From a virus, in the IMG/VR virus record IMGVR_UViG_3300034651_000084: 64,000 bases of DNA; one strand, given 5' to 3'. A model generated the notes under the pieces. It was not told the origin of the DNA. It was given only the letters and a program-made list of their open reading frames with translations, and searched no databases. Of the stretch, positions 10,344-49,883 are shown piece by piece; within the stretch, counting starts at the first letter, position 1, and the number at the start of each line of letters is the position of its first letter. Position numbers and translations under genes: made by a program.

Positions 10344-10937
10344 ATGAATATTAAAGAAATAATCGAGAAACATACAGACGAAGATGGAAAAATCAATCAA
10401 GAAGAATTCGAAAAGGAATTAAAAGAAGAACAGGCAAAAGCCTATGTACCAAAAGAAGATTTCAACTCTAAAAATAAAGAGCTAAAGAGCGCGAACGAAA
10501 CTTTAGAACAGCTCAAAAAAGATAATAAAAATGTCGAAACATTACAATCACAAATCAAAGCTCATGAAACAAAAGTGACTGAACTTCAAGAAGAGTTGGC
10601 TGATGAACGCAAAACATTTGCTATCAAAGAGGCACTGCAAACAGCTGGTGCGACTGATGTTGATTATATGATGTATAAACTTGGTGATGTCGAAGTCGAT
10701 GATGAAGGAAATGTAAAAGACCTAGAGAATAAAGTGAAATCATTGCAAGAAGAAAACAAAGATTTCTTTAAAGTTAAAAAAGCAACAAAAGATGATGGCA
10801 ATGGTGGTTATCGAGTAATTGATAACAAACTGGATGATGGAAATGCAACACCGTTGACCAAAAAGGATATTTACGAAAAATATCCGAATGATAAAGAAAA
10901 ACGGATTGAATTAATCCAAAAACTAGAAGAGGAGTAA
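10344..10937 (+). CDS. Capsid scaffolding protein (GP20-like)
   Basis: YVPKEDFNSKN, coiled-coil body, GATDVDYMMYKLG; directly upstream of the capsid gene. Confidence 0.88.
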   Translation: MNIKEIIEKHTDEDGKINQEEFEKELKEEQAKAYVPKEDFNSKNKELKSANETLEQLKKDNKNVETLQSQIKAHETKVTELQEELADERKTFAIKEALQTAGATDVDYMMYKLGDVEVDDEGNVKDLENKVKSLQEENKDFFKVKKATKDDGNGGYRVIDNKLDDGNATPLTKKDIYEKYPNDKEKRIELIQKLEEE

Positions 10938-10943
10938 TAAATT

Positions 10944-11795
10944 ATGCCAGTAGAATTTAATTTAGCGCCATATAGTGTTGACTTTGCAAACCAATTTGAT
11001 TTACGCACAGAAGGGTTCTTACAATTTTTTAATTTGATGTCTGTAGGGCAAGGAACATTAATTAAAGGTAAAACAGCAAATGTTGATTTAGCAGAGGACA
11101 TGACACATGCAAAAGGTGCTGAAATTTCAGAGTCTGATATTCAACTTGATGAAATAGATATTGCTGAATTAATCTTTGAAGCCACCAAAGTTCGCGTGTC
11201 ATACCAAGATATTCAAAAATTCGGTCGAGCAACAGCGATTGACCGTAAAGACAACGAATTAATTGATGCGTTGGCTGAACACATCGAAGACACTTTAATC
11301 ACGAATATGTCTGAGTTTGCTGAAGGCGCTGTGACAGCTGAAACTTACAAGCGAGGTTTAGCAAAAGCGGCTGGAGAAGTGAAATCTGTTCGAGGATTTA
11401 AAGGAGCAAAAGTTGTTGCTTTTGTGAATACACTCGATTACTACGACCACTTAGCAGATTCAGAAGTAGCCACTGCTCAAAGCTTATTTGGTATGGAATA
11501 TGTTGAAGATTTCTTAGGATACGATGCAATTTTCATGTCAAACAAGATTGCAGAAGGTGAATTTTTAGTTACGGCACGGAACAACTTAAACTTAGCACAT
11601 ATCCCGGCAAATGGTGAAGCATTCAACTCATTAGGATTAACGCCTACAGAAAACAACTTGTTAGGTGTTAAACACTACCTAGATGACGATACAGGCGACA
11701 TCCTTACTAAAGCGCATTTTGGTCTTGAGGCCTTTGGTGAACGAGTCGATGCTGTTATTAAAGTGACGATTGGTGTAGAAACAGCGGGGGAATAA
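10944..11795 (+). CDS. Major capsid protein
   Basis: 283 aa after the scaffold; strong GAGGAG RBS; position and size typical. Confidence 0.88.
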   Translation: MPVEFNLAPYSVDFANQFDLRTEGFLQFFNLMSVGQGTLIKGKTANVDLAEDMTHAKGAEISESDIQLDEIDIAELIFEATKVRVSYQDIQKFGRATAIDRKDNELIDALAEHIEDTLITNMSEFAEGAVTAETYKRGLAKAAGEVKSVRGFKGAKVVAFVNTLDYYDHLADSEVATAQSLFGMEYVEDFLGYDAIFMSNKIAEGEFLVTARNNLNLAHIPANGEAFNSLGLTPTENNLLGVKHYLDDDTGDILTKAHFGLEAFGERVDAVIKVTIGVETAGE

Positions 11796-11938
11796 TAGGC
11801 GGTACATCCTCAACCGCAGAAATAAATAATGAGGAGTATCCACTTGCTACGGGTGGCGGTTGGTATGAATTATCCAATGGTGACAAGGCGCAAGGAAAAG
11901 AAAATGCAACAGAAGCTGAAGAAGAGTTAAAGAGGTAG
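11786..11938 (+). CDS. Putative -1 frameshift extension of the major capsid protein (49 aa)
   Basis: The -1 frame is open across GCG GGG GAA TAA and encodes GIIGGTSSTAEINNEEYPLATGGGWYELSNGDKAQGKENATEAEEELKR. It has no start codon of its own and there is a pseudoknot at 11799-11835. Confidence 0.75.
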   Translation, partial: GGIIGGTSSTAEINNEEYPLATGGGWYELSNGDKAQGKENATEAEEELKR

Positions 11939-11960
11939 GCGAGAGCCTGCCTCTTTTATT
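11931..11960 (+). terminator. Intrinsic terminator after the capsid extension
   Basis: AGAGGTAGGC-GAGA-GCCTGCCTCT followed by TTTATTT. Confidence 0.8.
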
Positions 11961-11976
11961 TGAAAGGTGGTAACAA

Positions 11977-12510
11977 ATGATTATCACATTAGGAGAAGCA
12001 AAAAAAATAAATCCGACACTCGAACAGGAAGATTTAGATGCATTTGAGCAAAGCGTTCGAGCATTGACCAACAACAACTTTCAAAATCGACATGTACGAT
12101 TTAAAAATGTTGAATTAGTAGAGCCGAATATTATTAAGGTTAATGGCACAATTCGTGGTCTGCGTGAAGGCGACACATTAGAGGTCAATTATAGCCACTA
12201 TAACGATGGATTACATGTCATTGATGAAATACTCAGTGATAGCTTAAAAGTCCAAAATGAGCCATTTTTGACTGAGGAAACAAGCGGAATCATGGTAACT
12301 AAAGTGGAATATCCAGCAGATATTAAGCAGGGTATTAAAAAGTTGATTGAATATGATAAAAAGATGGCGAAAAAGATTGGGATCAAGTCTGAAACCATTT
12401 CAAGAATGAGCACAACGTATTATGATGTGAATGCAAATGATAACGTGGACGGTTACCCTGCTGCTTTGGTTTCGTTTTTAGATAAGCACGAAAAAATGAG
12501 GTGGGGCTAA
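11977..12510 (+). CDS. Head-tail adaptor/connector protein
   Basis: Position after capsid; KIGIKSETISRMSTTY...GYPAALVSFL motif. Confidence 0.75.
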   Translation: MIITLGEAKKINPTLEQEDLDAFEQSVRALTNNNFQNRHVRFKNVELVEPNIIKVNGTIRGLREGDTLEVNYSHYNDGLHVIDEILSDSLKVQNEPFLTEETSGIMVTKVEYPADIKQGIKKLIEYDKKMAKKIGIKSETISRMSTTYYDVNANDNVDGYPAALVSFLDKHEKMRWG

Positions 12511-14337: not shown

Positions 14338-14775
14338 ATGAGTTTAGAGATGCGAGAGTTAAAAGGCGATGACCTATTCACAATATTATCAATCGTTGGA
14401 AAATTGGACATCAAAGATGAATTTGTGAAGATGTTCGAAACCAATGCGGAATCAGTTTCTACAATTCAGTTATCTGATTATAAAGATAAAGACCCAACTA
14501 AAGCTGAGCAAAAGAAAATTGAAAAACAAAAAGCTAAGGCCGAGGCAGAAACCGAGGCCCGTGGTATGGAAGCAATGGCGGGCATTATGCAAACAGTGCT
14601 CTTAAATATCAATAAAATTAAAGGAGACATTAATTCTTTATTAGCTGATTTAACTGGTGAATCGATTGAAACGATTGAACAATTAGGATTAAAAGAATAC
14701 ACCGGTTTAATTGTTGCGTTTTTCAAGAAGGAAGAACTAAAAGATTTTTTCTCATCTATCGCATCATTAATGTAA
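14338..14775 (+). CDS. Tail assembly chaperone (gpG-like)
   Basis: Between tube and tape measure genes; ends KDFFSS over a slippery T TTT TTC at 14745-14751. Confidence 0.8.
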   Translation: MSLEMRELKGDDLFTILSIVGKLDIKDEFVKMFETNAESVSTIQLSDYKDKDPTKAEQKKIEKQKAKAEAETEARGMEAMAGIMQTVLLNINKIKGDINSLLADLTGESIETIEQLGLKEYTGLIVAFFKKEELKDFFSSIASLM

Positions 14776-15086: not shown

Positions 15087-18000
15087 TATCGAAATTTTTA
15101 AATTATTTGGCTCGATTGGAGCAGATACAGGTGAAGCCGATAAAGCTATTGATAAAGTAACGAATAATGCAAAGAAAGCCGGTAAAACTTTAGGTAATAT
15201 CGGAACTGCAATGGCAGATGTTGGGAAAAAGATGACAGCCGCTATAACACTTCCGGCAGTCGGTGCAGTTGCAGCAAGTATCGCATCATTTGCTGATTTA
15301 GAGCAGGCTATCGGTGGTATTGAAACATTGTTCAAAGGTAGTGCCGATGCAGTTATAAAAAACTCAGAGTCTGCTTATATGCGAGCGGGTGTTTCCGGAA
15401 CACAATACATGGAGCAAGTAACTAGCTTTAGTGCAACGTTGCTTCAAGGGTTAGGTGGAGACACTGAGGAAGCTGCAAAATACGCAGACACGGCCATGGT
15501 TGACATGTCAGACAATGCCAATAAATTTGGTACAAATATAGAATCTGTGCAAGATGCTTACCAAGGTTTTGCGAAAGACAACTACACCATGCTGGACAAC
15601 CTTAAGTTAGGTTATGGCGGGACGGCGGGCGAAATGGCTCGTTTGATCAATGAATCTGGTGTTCTAGGCGATACATTCGAGGCCACAGCAGAAAACGTCA
15701 ACGAAATTCCTTTTCACGTTATGGTAGAAGCGATTCATGAAATCCAAAACGAAATGGATATTACTGGTACAACAGCGCTCGAAGCAGAAGAAACGGTTTC
15801 GGGTTCTTTCGGTATGATGAAGGCTAGTCTCCAAGATTTAGCTGCTGGTTTTGGTCAAGAAGGCGCTGATATAGAAATGTTAATGGGAAACTTAGCTGAT
15901 TCCATAGGGGTCTTTGTAGATAATATCAAACGTGTTTTAGGCAATATGTGGGACAACTTACCGCTTGCTGAATGGCAAAAATGGGTCGGTGTAATCATTG
16001 TTGCTGCAGGCCCTTTGTTAGTCATGTTTGGAACATTAATTTCAGGCCTTGGAGCAGTAGTCACCGCGTTTAGTGGAGCATCTACCATAATGGGCGGACT
16101 AGCTGCTCTTTTTCCAAACCTAGCTGCAGGATTAGGGTTATTAAAAACGGCGTTTAGTACTTTGCTTGGTCCTGTTGGTTTAGTCATAGCGGCAATCGCA
16201 GGAATCGTTGCAGTCATCGTGCACTTGTATAACACTAACGAAGAGTTTAGGACAGTTGTTCAAGAAATTTGGACAAATATTCAATCGATTTTCGAAGAAG
16301 TCACACAAATCATTTCAGAAGTATTAACAATGGCGTTTGACACTCTTGCAACGTGGTGGGCAGATAATCAACAACAGTTTTACGATGTTATAGACCGTGT
16401 ATGGTCATCTATTTCAGACTTCTTTATTACGGTGTTTACAGCCATCGGAGACATAATCATGGCGGTTTGGGGGCCGATATCTTTCTGGTATCAAAACAAT
16501 CAGGAAGAGATTAAACAAACCATTGAAACGGTTTGGAGCGCAATATCTAACACCTTTATGACGATTATGGAAACAGTCGGCGGTCACGTTAGCAGAGGGT
16601 TTGAGTTGATTTCAAGCGTGATTGAATTTGTTATGCCTCATGTTCAAACAATTATTGATAACGTGATGTTTGCGATTAGTAATGTCATAAATTTAGTCAT
16701 GGCTATCATTAATAGAGACTGGGGATCTGCTTGGGAAGCAATACAAAAGATTATAGATAGTACTTGGGTTGCGATTAAAAACATTATCAGCTTAGGTATT
16801 GATATTCTAAAAACAATTATCTCGACCGCTTGGAATGCAATAAAAGAGCTAACTTCAACCGTTTGGAATAGTATAAAAGACTTTTTCTCAGAACTTTGGA
16901 CCTCAATAACTACAAGAGCAACAGAAGCCTGGAATGGATTTAAAACATTCCTTTCAGAATTATGGATTTCCATTACTACACCATTAAAAGAAACGTGGGA
17001 AGGGATTAAAACATTCTTTTCTGATACGTGGACAAGTATTTCAACAAGTACTTCAGATACCTGGAACGGTATCAAAGAATACTTTGCTAATCTTTGGAGC
17101 GGCATCGTAGCAACCGCCCAAGAAATATGGGCGCCTATCGCTGAATTCTTTACGAATTTATGGGAAGGAGTCAAACAAGTATTTACATTTGCTTGGGATG
17201 CCATTCAATTGGTTTTAACGGCTGCTTTTGGTGCTATTATGGTTTTATTTGTAACGGTTTGGAACGCTATTGCAGATGTTATAAATACCGTCATGGGGGA
17301 AATATACAATGTCATTATGACTATTTGGAACGGTATAAAAGGCTATATAGAAACCATTATGAATACCGTAAAAGGCATCATTTCAACGATTTGGGAAAAT
17401 ATCTCATCAGCTATTACAATAGCTCTCAATAATATTAAAACAACTGTTACAAACATTTGGAATACCATTAAAGATACTACTTCAACTGTATGGAACGCTG
17501 TAAGCACAGGAATCGCAAACATATGGAATCGAATTAAAACGACTATTACAAATACCGCTAATTCGGTATGGACAACAGTAAATAACGTCTGGAATCGAAT
17601 TAAAACGACAACGCAAACAATTTGGAATAATATTTCAACAACAATTATGAATATTTGGAACCGGATTAAAGGGTTAGTTACTAGCGCGATTAATGCAGTG
17701 AAAAATATCGTTACAAATACTTGGAATTCAATAAAAAGCACCACTTCCAACATTTGGAACTCAATCAGAAACACGATTACAAATGTTTGGAACCGAATCA
17801 AAACAAGTGTGTCGAATGCTATAAACCGCGTGAAAACAACAGTTACTAACGTGTTTAATTCGGTTAAAAGCAATGTGTCAAGAATTTGGAATAATATTAA
17901 AAATGCCATCACTCGACCAATTAATGATGCGAGAGATGCAGTTAAAAGAGCTATCGATAGAATTAAAGGGTTCTTTGATTTTGAATGGAGTTTACCGAAG

Positions 18001-25784: not shown

Positions 25785-26129
25785 ATGATTGGTGAAATAT
25801 TAGCAAACATGGCTTCGTGGATTACGTCATTAACAGTTATAGGTGGTGCGCTAGTTTGGATTGTAAATGTAGTAATTGTAAAGCCAGCAGAAAAGAGAAT
25901 AAATAAATTTGAGCAAAATTTGCTAAAAAAACAAGAATTAAATCAAAAACCGCTAACTGAAGCCATCGACAAATTAAACGAGCTTTTAGATGAATCCCAA
26001 CGCGACAGAAAACTGTTACATGAAATTGCGGACGAAAATGTTAAAGCCATCGACATACATGAAGAACAATTCGAAGACCACGAAATCCGCATAACTGTTT
26101 TAGAAGATAGAGGGGGAAAAAGAAAATGA
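25785..26129 (+). CDS. Single-TM plus coiled-coil lysis-cassette protein (holin-associated)
   Basis: N-terminal hydrophobic helix, then coiled coil ending HEIRITVLE; AAAGGAG RBS. Confidence 0.65.
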   Translation: MIGEILANMASWITSLTVIGGALVWIVNVVIVKPAEKRINKFEQNLLKKQELNQKPLTEAIDKLNELLDESQRDRKLLHEIADENVKAIDIHEEQFEDHEIRITVLEDRGGKRK

Positions 26130-37236: not shown

Positions 37237-37974
37237 ATGACTGAAAATATCAAAGAAGCTTTACAGTATGCGGTTGACTTGGCAGGACAAGAAGACAAGG
37301 TTATTAAGGACAAAGGTGGAAAAGAATGGTACGACAGCAATAGTCATCGACTACTTGAGTTAGAACCTAAACAATACTACCCAGAATTATTACGACTAAA
37401 TACGTTAGATAGCTTGATTAATTATTACAAGAATAATATTAACGAAATTGCAGACATGCGTACGATTGTCGTTGTTGATAACCCTCGTGAAGTCTATGTG
37501 TATACCGAAGATGATGACAGAGAAAAGCGCACAACCTTAATCAACGTTGAAGCTAGTATTCCACATATTGAGTTCGATACATTTATGCCAGCAGATACTT
37601 TTAACATCGAATTACAGTCCAAATTTTTAGATAATTATGACCGTGAAAATGTACTGGATTTTGCTTCTGCTATTGTCATTGATGAGGGCATAGATGTTGA
37701 AGATGATGGAGTAGCACAAATCACAACAGTTAAGCAAGGGGTAGCCAGCCGCTCCAAAGCCAAAGCACCAAATCCAGTTACCCTTGCACCATATCGCACA
37801 TTTTTAGAAGTGGAACAGCCACCAAGTGATTTCATCTTACGACTGAATAAAGAAGCGAACTTTGCACTATTCGAAGCAGATGGCGGCTTTTGGAAACTCC
37901 AAGCAGTACGACTAGTTAAAGAATACCTCGCTGAAAATCTCGAAGACTTTGAAAATGTCTTTGTGTTGGCCTAA
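37237..37974 (+). CDS. Conserved phage hypothetical protein
   Basis: 245 aa, PNPVTLAPYRTFLEVEQP...ALFEADGG; spans the unit junction with no interruption. Confidence 0.8.
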   Translation: MTENIKEALQYAVDLAGQEDKVIKDKGGKEWYDSNSHRLLELEPKQYYPELLRLNTLDSLINYYKNNINEIADMRTIVVVDNPREVYVYTEDDDREKRTTLINVEASIPHIEFDTFMPADTFNIELQSKFLDNYDRENVLDFASAIVIDEGIDVEDDGVAQITTVKQGVASRSKAKAPNPVTLAPYRTFLEVEQPPSDFILRLNKEANFALFEADGGFWKLQAVRLVKEYLAENLEDFENVFVLA

Positions 37975-38040
37975 ACGATTTGGTAGCGGTGCAGGGCACG
38001 AGCCTTGCACCTTGATTGGAAAGGTATTGGTGGTGATTAA

Positions 38041-39189
38041 ATGGCAGATATTAAATGGATAAAGTTATCCGTAAATATGTTTGATGATGAAAAGATAAAA
38101 CTGATACGCACAATGCCAGAAGGCGACTCAATCGTTATTATCTGGGTACAAATTTTATGTTTGGCCGGCAAGATTAATGATAATGGTGCTGTGTATATGG
38201 GACAAAACCTAGCATATTCGGACGAAATGTTAGCCACTATATTAGGGCATCCATTAAACATCATGAGAGTTGCACTCCAAACATTAGAACAATTCGAAAT
38301 GATCGAAGTGGACGAAGGCGGAGAAATTGAAATCGTCAATTGGGAAAAACATCAGAATATAGATGGCATGGAACGTATTAGAAAACAAAATCGTGAGCGT
38401 AAAAAACGGTTTGACTTAAGAAAGAAAATCGAACAATTGGGGTATGATCCAAACGCTGAAAATGTCCCTTATGAAGTAGAAAAATTAGAAGAATACGTTG
38501 AAAAAATCGAAAAATTAAGTAGTAACGCTATTGAAACGTTCGGTAACGTTACTGAAGAAAACAACAATCATAAAACTGATAAAAGTGAACAAGAACCGCA
38601 CAACAACAGCGATAACGTTAGTTCAGATGGTGGTAACGTTACAGTAACGTCTGGTAACGCAACAGATAAGACTAGAATAGAAGAGAGAAGAGAAGAGAAG
38701 AATAGAGAAGAAAAGAAAGAAAGCAGCAGCAAAGAAAAAAATGCAGGCGGCGGCTCTGAAAAAAATATAGAAACTTTTTCTATTTTTGAAAAATTATGGA
38801 TGTTTCCAAATCTCGTGCAAAAAGAAACCTTGGAAGAATTTATTGATTTGTATGGTGATGATTTAGTGGTGGCTGCGATTAAGATAGCTGGTTCTAAAGA
38901 TGTGATTAAGGGTAAGGCAATTAATTTTATTGAGTCTGTCCTTAAAGAGTGGGAAAACAATAATGTTAAAACCCTTGAACAAGCTCGTGAGTACGAACGT
39001 AATCGGAAAACCAAAAAGAAAAGCTACAACAACCAAAAACAACCTGTTCAAAAAGAGAAGTTACCAGACTGGGTAAATAACGAGCAGGGTACATCAAAAG
39101 ATGATGAAGTACTTGATGACACCGAAACCGAAAAACGATTAGAGCGACTGAAAAGACTTAGAGAAGAAAAGGGGTTAAGTGATGAATAA
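38041..39189 (+). CDS. Replication initiation protein (copy 2)
   Basis: Identical to 134-1282. Confidence 0.9.
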   Translation: MADIKWIKLSVNMFDDEKIKLIRTMPEGDSIVIIWVQILCLAGKINDNGAVYMGQNLAYSDEMLATILGHPLNIMRVALQTLEQFEMIEVDEGGEIEIVNWEKHQNIDGMERIRKQNRERKKRFDLRKKIEQLGYDPNAENVPYEVEKLEEYVEKIEKLSSNAIETFGNVTEENNNHKTDKSEQEPHNNSDNVSSDGGNVTVTSGNATDKTRIEERREEKNREEKKESSSKEKNAGGGSEKNIETFSIFEKLWMFPNLVQKETLEEFIDLYGDDLVVAAIKIAGSKDVIKGKAINFIESVLKEWENNNVKTLEQAREYERNRKTKKKSYNNQKQPVQKEKLPDWVNNEQGTSKDDEVLDDTETEKRLERLKRLREEKGLSDE

Positions 39190-48850: not shown

Positions 48851-49702
48851 ATGCCAGTAGAATTTAATTTAGCGCCATATAGTGTTGACTTTGCAAACCA
48901 ATTTGATTTACGCACAGAAGGGTTCTTACAATTTTTTAATTTGATGTCTGTAGGGCAAGGAACATTAATTAAAGGTAAAACAGCAAATGTTGATTTAGCA
49001 GAGGACATGACACATGCAAAAGGTGCTGAAATTTCAGAGTCTGATATTCAACTTGATGAAATAGATATTGCTGAATTAATCTTTGAAGCCACCAAAGTTC
49101 GCGTGTCATACCAAGATATTCAAAAATTCGGTCGAGCAACAGCGATTGACCGTAAAGACAACGAATTAATTGATGCGTTGGCTGAACACATCGAAGACAC
49201 TTTAATCACGAATATGTCTGAGTTTGCTGAAGGCGCTGTGACAGCTGAAACTTACAAGCGAGGTTTAGCAAAAGCGGCTGGAGAAGTGAAATCTGTTCGA
49301 GGATTTAAAGGAGCAAAAGTTGTTGCTTTTGTGAATACACTCGATTACTACGACCACTTAGCAGATTCAGAAGTAGCCACTGCTCAAAGCTTATTTGGTA
49401 TGGAATATGTTGAAGATTTCTTAGGATACGATGCAATTTTCATGTCAAACAAGATTGCAGAAGGTGAATTTTTAGTTACGGCACGGAACAACTTAAACTT
49501 AGCACATATCCCGGCAAATGGTGAAGCATTCAACTCATTAGGATTAACGCCTACAGAAAACAACTTGTTAGGTGTTAAACACTACCTAGATGACGATACA
49601 GGCGACATCCTTACTAAAGCGCATTTTGGTCTTGAGGCCTTTGGTGAACGAGTCGATGCTGTTATTAAAGTGACGATTGGTGTAGAAACAGCGGGGGAAT
49701 AA
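48851..49702 (+). CDS. Major capsid protein (copy 2)
   Basis: Identical to 10944-11795; -1 extension to 49845. Confidence 0.88.
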   Translation: MPVEFNLAPYSVDFANQFDLRTEGFLQFFNLMSVGQGTLIKGKTANVDLAEDMTHAKGAEISESDIQLDEIDIAELIFEATKVRVSYQDIQKFGRATAIDRKDNELIDALAEHIEDTLITNMSEFAEGAVTAETYKRGLAKAAGEVKSVRGFKGAKVVAFVNTLDYYDHLADSEVATAQSLFGMEYVEDFLGYDAIFMSNKIAEGEFLVTARNNLNLAHIPANGEAFNSLGLTPTENNLLGVKHYLDDDTGDILTKAHFGLEAFGERVDAVIKVTIGVETAGE

Positions 49703-49883
49703 TAGGCGGTACATCCTCAACCGCAGAAATAAATAATGAGGAGTATCCACTTGCTACGGGTGGCGGTTGGTATGAATTATCCAATGGTGACAAGGCGCAA
49801 GGAAAAGAAAATGCAACAGAAGCTGAAGAAGAGTTAAAGAGGTAGGCGAGAGCCTGCCTCTTTTATTTGAAAGGTGGTAACAA

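Follow-up and report, generated by a model that had tools for sequence, protein, structure and literature searches.

The capsid gene and the sequence 3' of it

The sequence analysed (64,000 nt; hereafter the window) corresponds to one circular phage genome of 37,907 bp, written out approximately 1.7 times. All positions compared at that period (26093/26093) are identical, and nucleotides 1-300 equal nucleotides 37908-38207. The earlier note reported that the site described below recurs at 49688-49867; because the window is one genome repeated at 37,907 bp, the 49688 site is the same site as that at 11781 and not an independent copy. The phage is known from a single plant-metagenome assembly only; among sequencing runs, its sequence turned up in the probable source run alone, and a search for RNA runs containing it found none. 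Near-identical relatives were found neither by megablast against the phage collection nor when viral and genome contigs were scanned with a single protein. The following features were distinguished in the capsid region:

10344-10937: Phage_scaffold gene, 5' neighbour of the capsid gene
10944-11795, + strand: major capsid protein gene, 283 aa, zero-frame product ending ...VETAGE (phrog_544 major head protein, E 1.7e-21)
11786-11792, + strand: candidate slip heptamer G GGG GAA, in phase and abutting the stop codon (sequence; NNG GGG GAR + TAR at six other capsid ends)
11793-11798, + strand: zero-frame stop codons TAA TAG, which are also the 6-nt spacer to the RNA structure
11789-11938, + strand: putative -1 frame extension including its stop codon (translation; phrog_6480 match; AlphaFold2)
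11799-11840, + strand: candidate stimulator, an H-type pseudoknot or a competing hairpin (geometry, energy, background scan, MFE)
11932-11961, + strand: intrinsic terminator, a 9-bp stem (11932-11953) with a GAGA loop followed by the T tract TTTTATTT, overlapping the extension stop codon
11977-12510, + strand: next head gene (phrog_1236), the end of the variable slot, kept in all relatives

All capsid homologues with 50-69% identity have a scaffold gene on one side and a phrog_1236 head gene on the other. The capsid gene of the window ends ACA GCG GGG GAA TAA TAG, as the earlier note had read it, and the -1 frame is open across this end, from 11762 to a TAG at 11936-11938, with ATG, GTG and TTG all absent. 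The same frame also lacks ATT, ATC and CTG, so that ATA is the sole near-start codon type present. Its translation is GG-IIGGTSSTAEINNEEYPLATGGGWYELSNGDKAQGKENATEAEEELKR, followed by the TAG at 11936-11938, and two parts can be distinguished in it: a flexible linker of about 17 residues (approximately 11792-11842) and a folded beta-beta-beta-alpha module of about 30 residues (approximately 11843-11932). The long form would comprise 331 aa in total, i.e. 48 aa (about 5 kDa) more than the short form.

In the -1 frame of the heptamer, GGG re-pairs perfectly on GGG, and GAA re-pairs on GGA with a G:U pair. The slip site had been regarded as non-canonical, but it is hardly unusual: GGGGGAA is a documented phage -1 heptamer (the 'fivetwo' motif of actinophages; phage phi16). 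The same seven nucleotides occur at three further places in the genome. Those at 2620-2626 and 26112-26118 lie 6-9 nt 5' of ATG starts and look like ribosome-binding sites, while that at 17295-17301 is in phase within the tape-measure gene, is followed by 45 open -1 codons and has no obvious role. A separate candidate shift site is present in the tail assembly chaperone gene (14338-14775), which contains an in-phase T TTT TTC at 14745-14751 and whose -1 frame is open from this heptamer to approximately 15086, just 5' of the tape-measure gene. Judged by its sequence, this is the usual G/GT-type -1 frameshift, with a slip site unlike that of the capsid gene.

The downstream RNA structure proposed in the earlier note can form. 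It is a 5+6 bp H-type pseudoknot with stem 1 at 11799-11803/11813-11817 and stem 2 at 11807-11812/11830-11835, and both the 6-nt spacer and the 12-nt A-rich loop lie where they had been placed. Its stacking energy is -13.9 kcal/mol; when a simple H-type pseudoknot finder (spacer 4-9 nt) was applied to 6000 random positions of the phage's own genome, an equal or better value was obtained at two of them. Nested MFE folding favours a competing long hairpin (11801-11812/11830-11840; -10.5 kcal/mol, z -2.9), which is an extension of stem 2 and starts 8 nt past the heptamer. Either way, as pseudoknot or as hairpin, a stable predicted structure would start 6-8 nt 3' of the heptamer. With the same simple finder, a comparable pseudoknot was absent from the six sister loci described below, whose downstream structures are plain hairpins or weak (z -1.1 in L019, +1.1 in L023 and -0.8 in L024). 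The pseudoknot is feasible and statistically unusual, yet not conserved.

A terminator-like hairpin with a T tract is present 3' of the extension, at 11932-11961, and no terminator was found between the capsid stop codon and the extension, in line with the earlier description.

The putative appended module

The profile search that had been suggested for the GGGWYELSNG domain gave a match to phrog_6480 (E 4e-11), spanning positions 55-91 of the 95 in the profile. By tblastn, the extension matches the C-terminal 32-47 residues of small genes located directly 3' of the capsid gene in four phages (Bacillus phages Athena and B13, Bacillus phage 1, and Parageobacillus phage NIIg3.2); one of these genes, gp22 of Bacillus phage 1 (L002:2399-2659), is a member of phrog_6480. 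The module also matches six prophage genes in a sample of 401 Bacilli genomes. In all these matches it ends a free-standing protein of 85-107 aa that has an N-terminal module as well, whereas the window carries the C-terminal module only. The 11 family-invariant positions are all retained (11/11), and the AlphaFold2 model, built from a seven-sequence alignment, has pLDDT >90 for residues 20-49, which are predicted to form three short strands and one helix.

The name 'Arc-like repressor' attached to phrog_6480 implies a ribbon-helix-helix fold. It is probably a mis-annotation, because the members directly follow the capsid gene in the head module and their C-terminal part is predicted to be beta-beta-beta-alpha. 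YqbF of the B. subtilis skin element may be the same kind of two-module protein, but Pfam gave no YqbF match among the proteins scanned, and membership is not claimed here.

Assignment of the module to the HeH/LEM, SAP or Rho_N domains was rejected, as no Pfam hit (PF12949, PF07498, PF02037) was obtained up to E 1. HeH identity was further rejected on the hhalign comparison of the window module with the HeH modules of the relatives (probability 0.2%) and on the predicted fold, which is three strands and a helix and not helix-loop-helix.

Some likeness was found to the C-terminal segment of RecA (GxWYxY...GQG(K/R)ENA). It was weak by Foldseek (E 3-6, 33-34% identity over 32-36 residues), in a targeted blastp (up to 63% over 19 residues) and by hhalign, where P was 0.0026 but the probability just 11.6%. 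Foldseek of the module against the PDB gave no match at E <1. A HMMER profile search of the PDB sequences returned no RecA, only chance-level matches to GGGYYE-type strings, and the best score in a wide VIA-align search was Z 2.8, with the three-strand-plus-helix DNA-binding domains of lambda Int and the GCC-box type at Z 2.2-2.3, which is not meaningful. At the level of sequence and predicted structure, the module may thus weakly resemble the RecA C-terminal motif, a likeness to be treated as a lead only.

Contents of the slot 3' of the capsid gene in related phages

The relatives compared (designated by L numbers) were capsid homologues at 50-69% identity, together with distant members from profile searches and the phage collection; the profile scans contributed just L019, L020 and L021 as extra relatives. 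A candidate -1 shift was recognized in seven lineages (the window, L010, L017, L019, L023, L024 and L025), whose capsid proteins share 25-69% identity (31% for L019). Their capsid genes end NNG GGG GAR followed by TAA or TAG, and the -1 frame leads directly to a linker plus small domain, the N-terminal module being absent. The putative appended module of the six sister lineages is HeH.

This ending was found at none of the 22 other family loci examined (0/22); these have a separate gene beginning with ATG, a fusion in frame or an empty slot. Fisher's exact test for the association of the heptamer ending with a direct -1 domain (7 vs 22 loci) gave p ~6e-7, a value to be read with the lineages not being fully independent. 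The heptamer was absent from the isolated phages sampled from the capsid family: phiFL2A, P738, StB27, Ceridwen, P9, Javan383, Javan515, LfeSau, 187 and pSp_SNUABM-J.

Where the gene is separate, its ATG lies in a TAATG overlap with the capsid stop codon (L005, L008, L014 and L015, and similarly Javan515, P738 and Ceridwen), and the product has the N-terminal module followed usually by a HeH domain. The -1 frame relation is inherited from this TAATG stop/start overlap, which is common in the relatives, and for that reason is not evidence on its own. In L010, an ATG is aligned with the second ATA of the window, and on its sequence the plain reading at that locus would be a coupled separate gene. 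In L017 and L024, separate initiation cannot explain the arrangement, because the slip is followed by a GTA codon, with nothing start-like nearby. Gene calls are missing at L006, L024 and the window, and ORFs of 42-51 aa were called at L010, L017 and L023.

In P0011 (L011), the capsid protein, an acidic linker and HeH form one in-frame protein. C-terminal domains of the Big_2, cadherin-like or Rho_N/HeH-like type are present in frame in many members of the family, which makes the capsid C-terminus a natural place of attachment.

The 3' border of the slot can also be compared. A terminator homologous to that of the window follows the HeH ORF in L005, L008, L010, L011 and L014. When window positions 11920-11985 are set against these five loci, homology is seen in the last extension codons, in the terminator stem and in the start of the next head gene with its ribosome-binding site, the window module ending ELKR and the HeH ORFs ending KLEG. 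Locus L011 keeps a KLEG-stop remnant 3' of its in-frame fusion. From this alignment, modules seem to have been swapped between the slip site and the terminator.

Several other capsid ends in the family carry candidate shift sites of a different kind. The capsid gene of L006 (L006:3326-3584; 67% identity) ends ACT CCC TAG, its +1 frame is open for 85 codons encoding an acidic linker and HeH, and a hairpin lies downstream (z -2.4). By its sequence this looks like a +1 shift on CCC beside a stop codon, the kind reported for Listeria phage tsh genes according to a review of recoding (PMC5009743). In L021 (L021:2330-2800; RWZD01000042.1; 66% identity), translation across the end of the capsid gene in the +1 frame gives a G5-like domain, an acidic linker and HeH. 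The final capsid codons there include an ATG that has a GGAGA ribosome-binding site, and a separate gene or a shift are both possible. The capsid gene of Flavonifractor phage Chenonceau (L053:1570-1990; ON453904) ends GCG GGG GGT TAA, with a 14-bp stem starting from the stop codon (z -2.9). The -1 frame there leads into a beta-rich domain of >110 residues, which other family members carry in frame, and the record annotates a separate hypothetical protein with a start further downstream. The capsid genes of Staphylococcus phages 187 and pSp_SNUABM-J (L049:1540-1630 and L050:1590-1680) end ...TTA CCC TCG/TCA TAA. In both, the +1 frame stays open for about 20 codons and is conserved; this may be a short +1 extension on CCC similar to that of PSA, whose cps gene is listed in the same review with a +1 shift on ACA CCC UCC (PMC5009743).

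Interpretation and comparison with known systems

We consider it likely, from the sequence comparisons above, that a programmed -1 frameshift at the last two sense codons extends a minority of the capsid protein molecules. This reading, which the earlier note had put forward, is supported by the occurrence of the heptamer in seven diverged lineages and by the precedent of Listeria phages A118 and A500; on the sequences compared, a -1 extension is the only reading that would explain the same arrangement in all seven. Most ribosomes would terminate at the UAA at 11793 and produce the 283-aa capsid protein, while a minority would slip by -1 on G GGG GAA, the P-site tRNA-Gly re-pairing from GGG to GGG and tRNA-Glu from GAA to GGA with G:U in the middle position. 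The slip would be aided by the RNA structure 6-8 nt 3' (pseudoknot or hairpin) and probably also by the adjacent stop codon, perhaps through slow termination there. The shifted ribosomes would translate 48 further codons, yielding the 331-aa form with the linker and the beta-beta-beta-alpha module, and the expected junction of this form is ...VETAG-G/E-IIGGTSSTAEINNEEYPLATGGGWYELSNGDK. The long form would be built into the shell as a minor capsid subunit and would tether the module to it. Elsewhere, the same job would be done by a separate small protein, encoded 3' of the capsid gene and composed of the N-terminal module and either this or a HeH C-terminal module.

Since the separate proteins always carry the N-terminal module, and since in its absence the C-terminal module is joined to the capsid protein, in frame or by a shift, we infer that anchoring to the capsid is the role of the N-terminal module and that the C-terminal module is the working end. 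The capsid C-terminus probably faces outward, by analogy with Ig-like capsid domains. The anatomy of the site, its conservation and an intact module with a confidently predicted fold are shown directly, whereas the shift itself, its efficiency, the outside position of the module and any binding partner are inferred.

The 49 codons might instead be a dead remnant, i.e. the C-terminal half of a two-module head gene (cf. Athena gp48) that has lost its N-terminal half and start and gives no product. In its favour, the exact module ends a separate gene of 85-107 aa with its own ATG or TTG in all other genomes where it was found, and the window retains the C-terminal part alone, without a start codon. 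However, the full set of family-invariant residues and a confident predicted fold are kept, the 17 codons upstream of the module remain open and linker-like, the junction has the same heptamer plus stop as six lineages with intact extensions, and a strong predicted structure lies at the right spacing, so that a remnant is quite unlikely. We regard as very unlikely a separate mini-protein of 47 aa, made as a free peptide by re-initiation or by a fresh start at the near-cognate ATA at 11795-11797, for which GGGGG would act as the Shine-Dalgarno sequence. As a start codon ATA is very poor, and it lies just 4 nt from GGGGG; moreover, five of the lineages (L017, L019, L023, L024 and L025) keep the heptamer without a start-like codon (GTA, or ATA then ACA, GGC or GTT), and a free 30-residue module would be without the N-terminal module found wherever the gene is separate. 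These points are set against the coupling of the downstream gene via the TAATG overlap in relatives, the position of the L010 ATG exactly at the ATA of the window, and the use of GGGGGAA as a ribosome-binding site at two other places in the genome.

An assembly error in the G run is a further explanation: with six G in the true sequence, the capsid gene would be fused in frame to the module. Homopolymers are error-prone, one added G does give an in-frame fusion, and such a fusion is known in the family (P0011). Nevertheless, in six unrelated assemblies a run of exactly five G likewise precedes GAR and a stop codon, and no variant is listed for the contig, whose k-mer depth is about 82; these data come from the source assembly itself and are not independent. 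We hold this explanation to be extremely improbable.

The site is thus most likely a well-supported, unannotated example of capsid frameshift extension, a mechanism already proven in Listeria and Lactobacillus phages. Two aspects appear modestly new, as judged from the sequences and the predicted fold: (i) the recurrence of the G GGG GAR-stop ending across one capsid family, and (ii) an appended module that is not the usual HeH or Ig-like domain. Gene callers miss such extensions or call tiny orphan ORFs. An annotation rule follows, by which an NNG GGG GAR-stop ending of a capsid gene, together with a -1 frame that stays open into a small domain, would point to a minor capsid species in many uncultured phages of Gram-positive hosts. 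Three routes to the capsid would be open to one accessory module: a separate two-module protein, in-frame fusion, or frameshift (-1, or +1 at CCC-stop). This pattern makes the function of the module easier to approach and points to the capsid C-terminus as a natural site of display. We also propose, as a joint claim that is rather unlikely to be right in all its parts, that G GGG GAR plus stop is a recoding cassette conserved among Firmicutes siphophages and shuffled horizontally between them, which tethers interchangeable modules (HeH in six lineages, RecA-C-terminal-like here) to some of the capsid subunits in place of a separate decoration-like protein, and that the window module is a RecA-derived polyanion- or DNA-binding motif on the capsid.

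The closest parallel is found in Listeria phages A118 and A500, for whose coat gene -1 frameshifting is reported (Dorscht et al., 2009, as cited by Atkins et al., 2016; PMC5009743). In the records of both phages, the cps gene ends GCG GGA AAC TAA and is followed by a strong hairpin (z -3.3) and a -1 HeH ORF, annotated as a separate 52-aa HeH/LEM protein (PF12949, E 8e-12). As in the window, an in-phase heptamer (G GGA AAC) stands directly 5' of the capsid stop codon, a structure lies a few nucleotides 3', the -1 ORF is start-poor and has about 50 codons encoding a linker and a small domain, and the next gene is a head-tail adaptor. The A118/A500 heptamer is canonical and differs from the G GGG GAA of the window, their capsid protein is unrelated to that of the window by BLASTP, their extension is HeH/LEM, whereas the window module is not HeH, and their -1 ORFs contain an ATG at a TAATG overlap, whereas that of the window has no ATG.

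The earlier note had cited T7 and Listeria phages as capsid precedents. According to the review (PMC5009743), the capsid proteins of A2, T3 and T7 are lengthened by -1 shifts. In Lactobacillus phage A2 (gp5A/gp5B) and in T7 and T3 (10A/10B), a -1 shift near the capsid end gives a minor, C-terminally extended subunit, as is proposed here, and the title of a paper on A2 calls the long major head subunit essential. The slip sites and appended domains of these phages are unlike those of the window, the extension being Ig-like in A2 and T3 (PMC5009743).

The heptamer itself has its parallel in tail genes. GGGGGAA is the invariant 'fivetwo' motif of approximately 1000 annotated -1 frameshifts in actinophage tail chaperones, where tRNA-Glu re-pairs on GGA via G:U (PMC10885494), and GGGGGAA with an H-type pseudoknot was proposed in corynephage phi16 (PMC5506516). 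The heptamer and the proposed G:U re-pairing are identical to those of the window, and phi16 shares the H-type pseudoknot too. The gene concerned is the tail chaperone G/GT of phages of high-GC hosts, whereas in the window it is the capsid gene; unlike the actinophages, the window phage has T TTT TTC and not GGGGGAA in its own tail chaperone gene.

The module is homologous (44-69% identity) to the C-terminal module GGGxYEL(S/P)NGxKxxGKxxA of Athena gp48, B13 gp6, Bacillus phage 1 gp22 and NIIg3.2 gp07. These are free proteins of 85-107 aa that begin at a start codon of their own and have an N-terminal module, neither of which the window module has. Their genes follow unrelated capsid genes encoding proteins of about 400 aa, whereas in the window the capsid protein itself would be the anchor.
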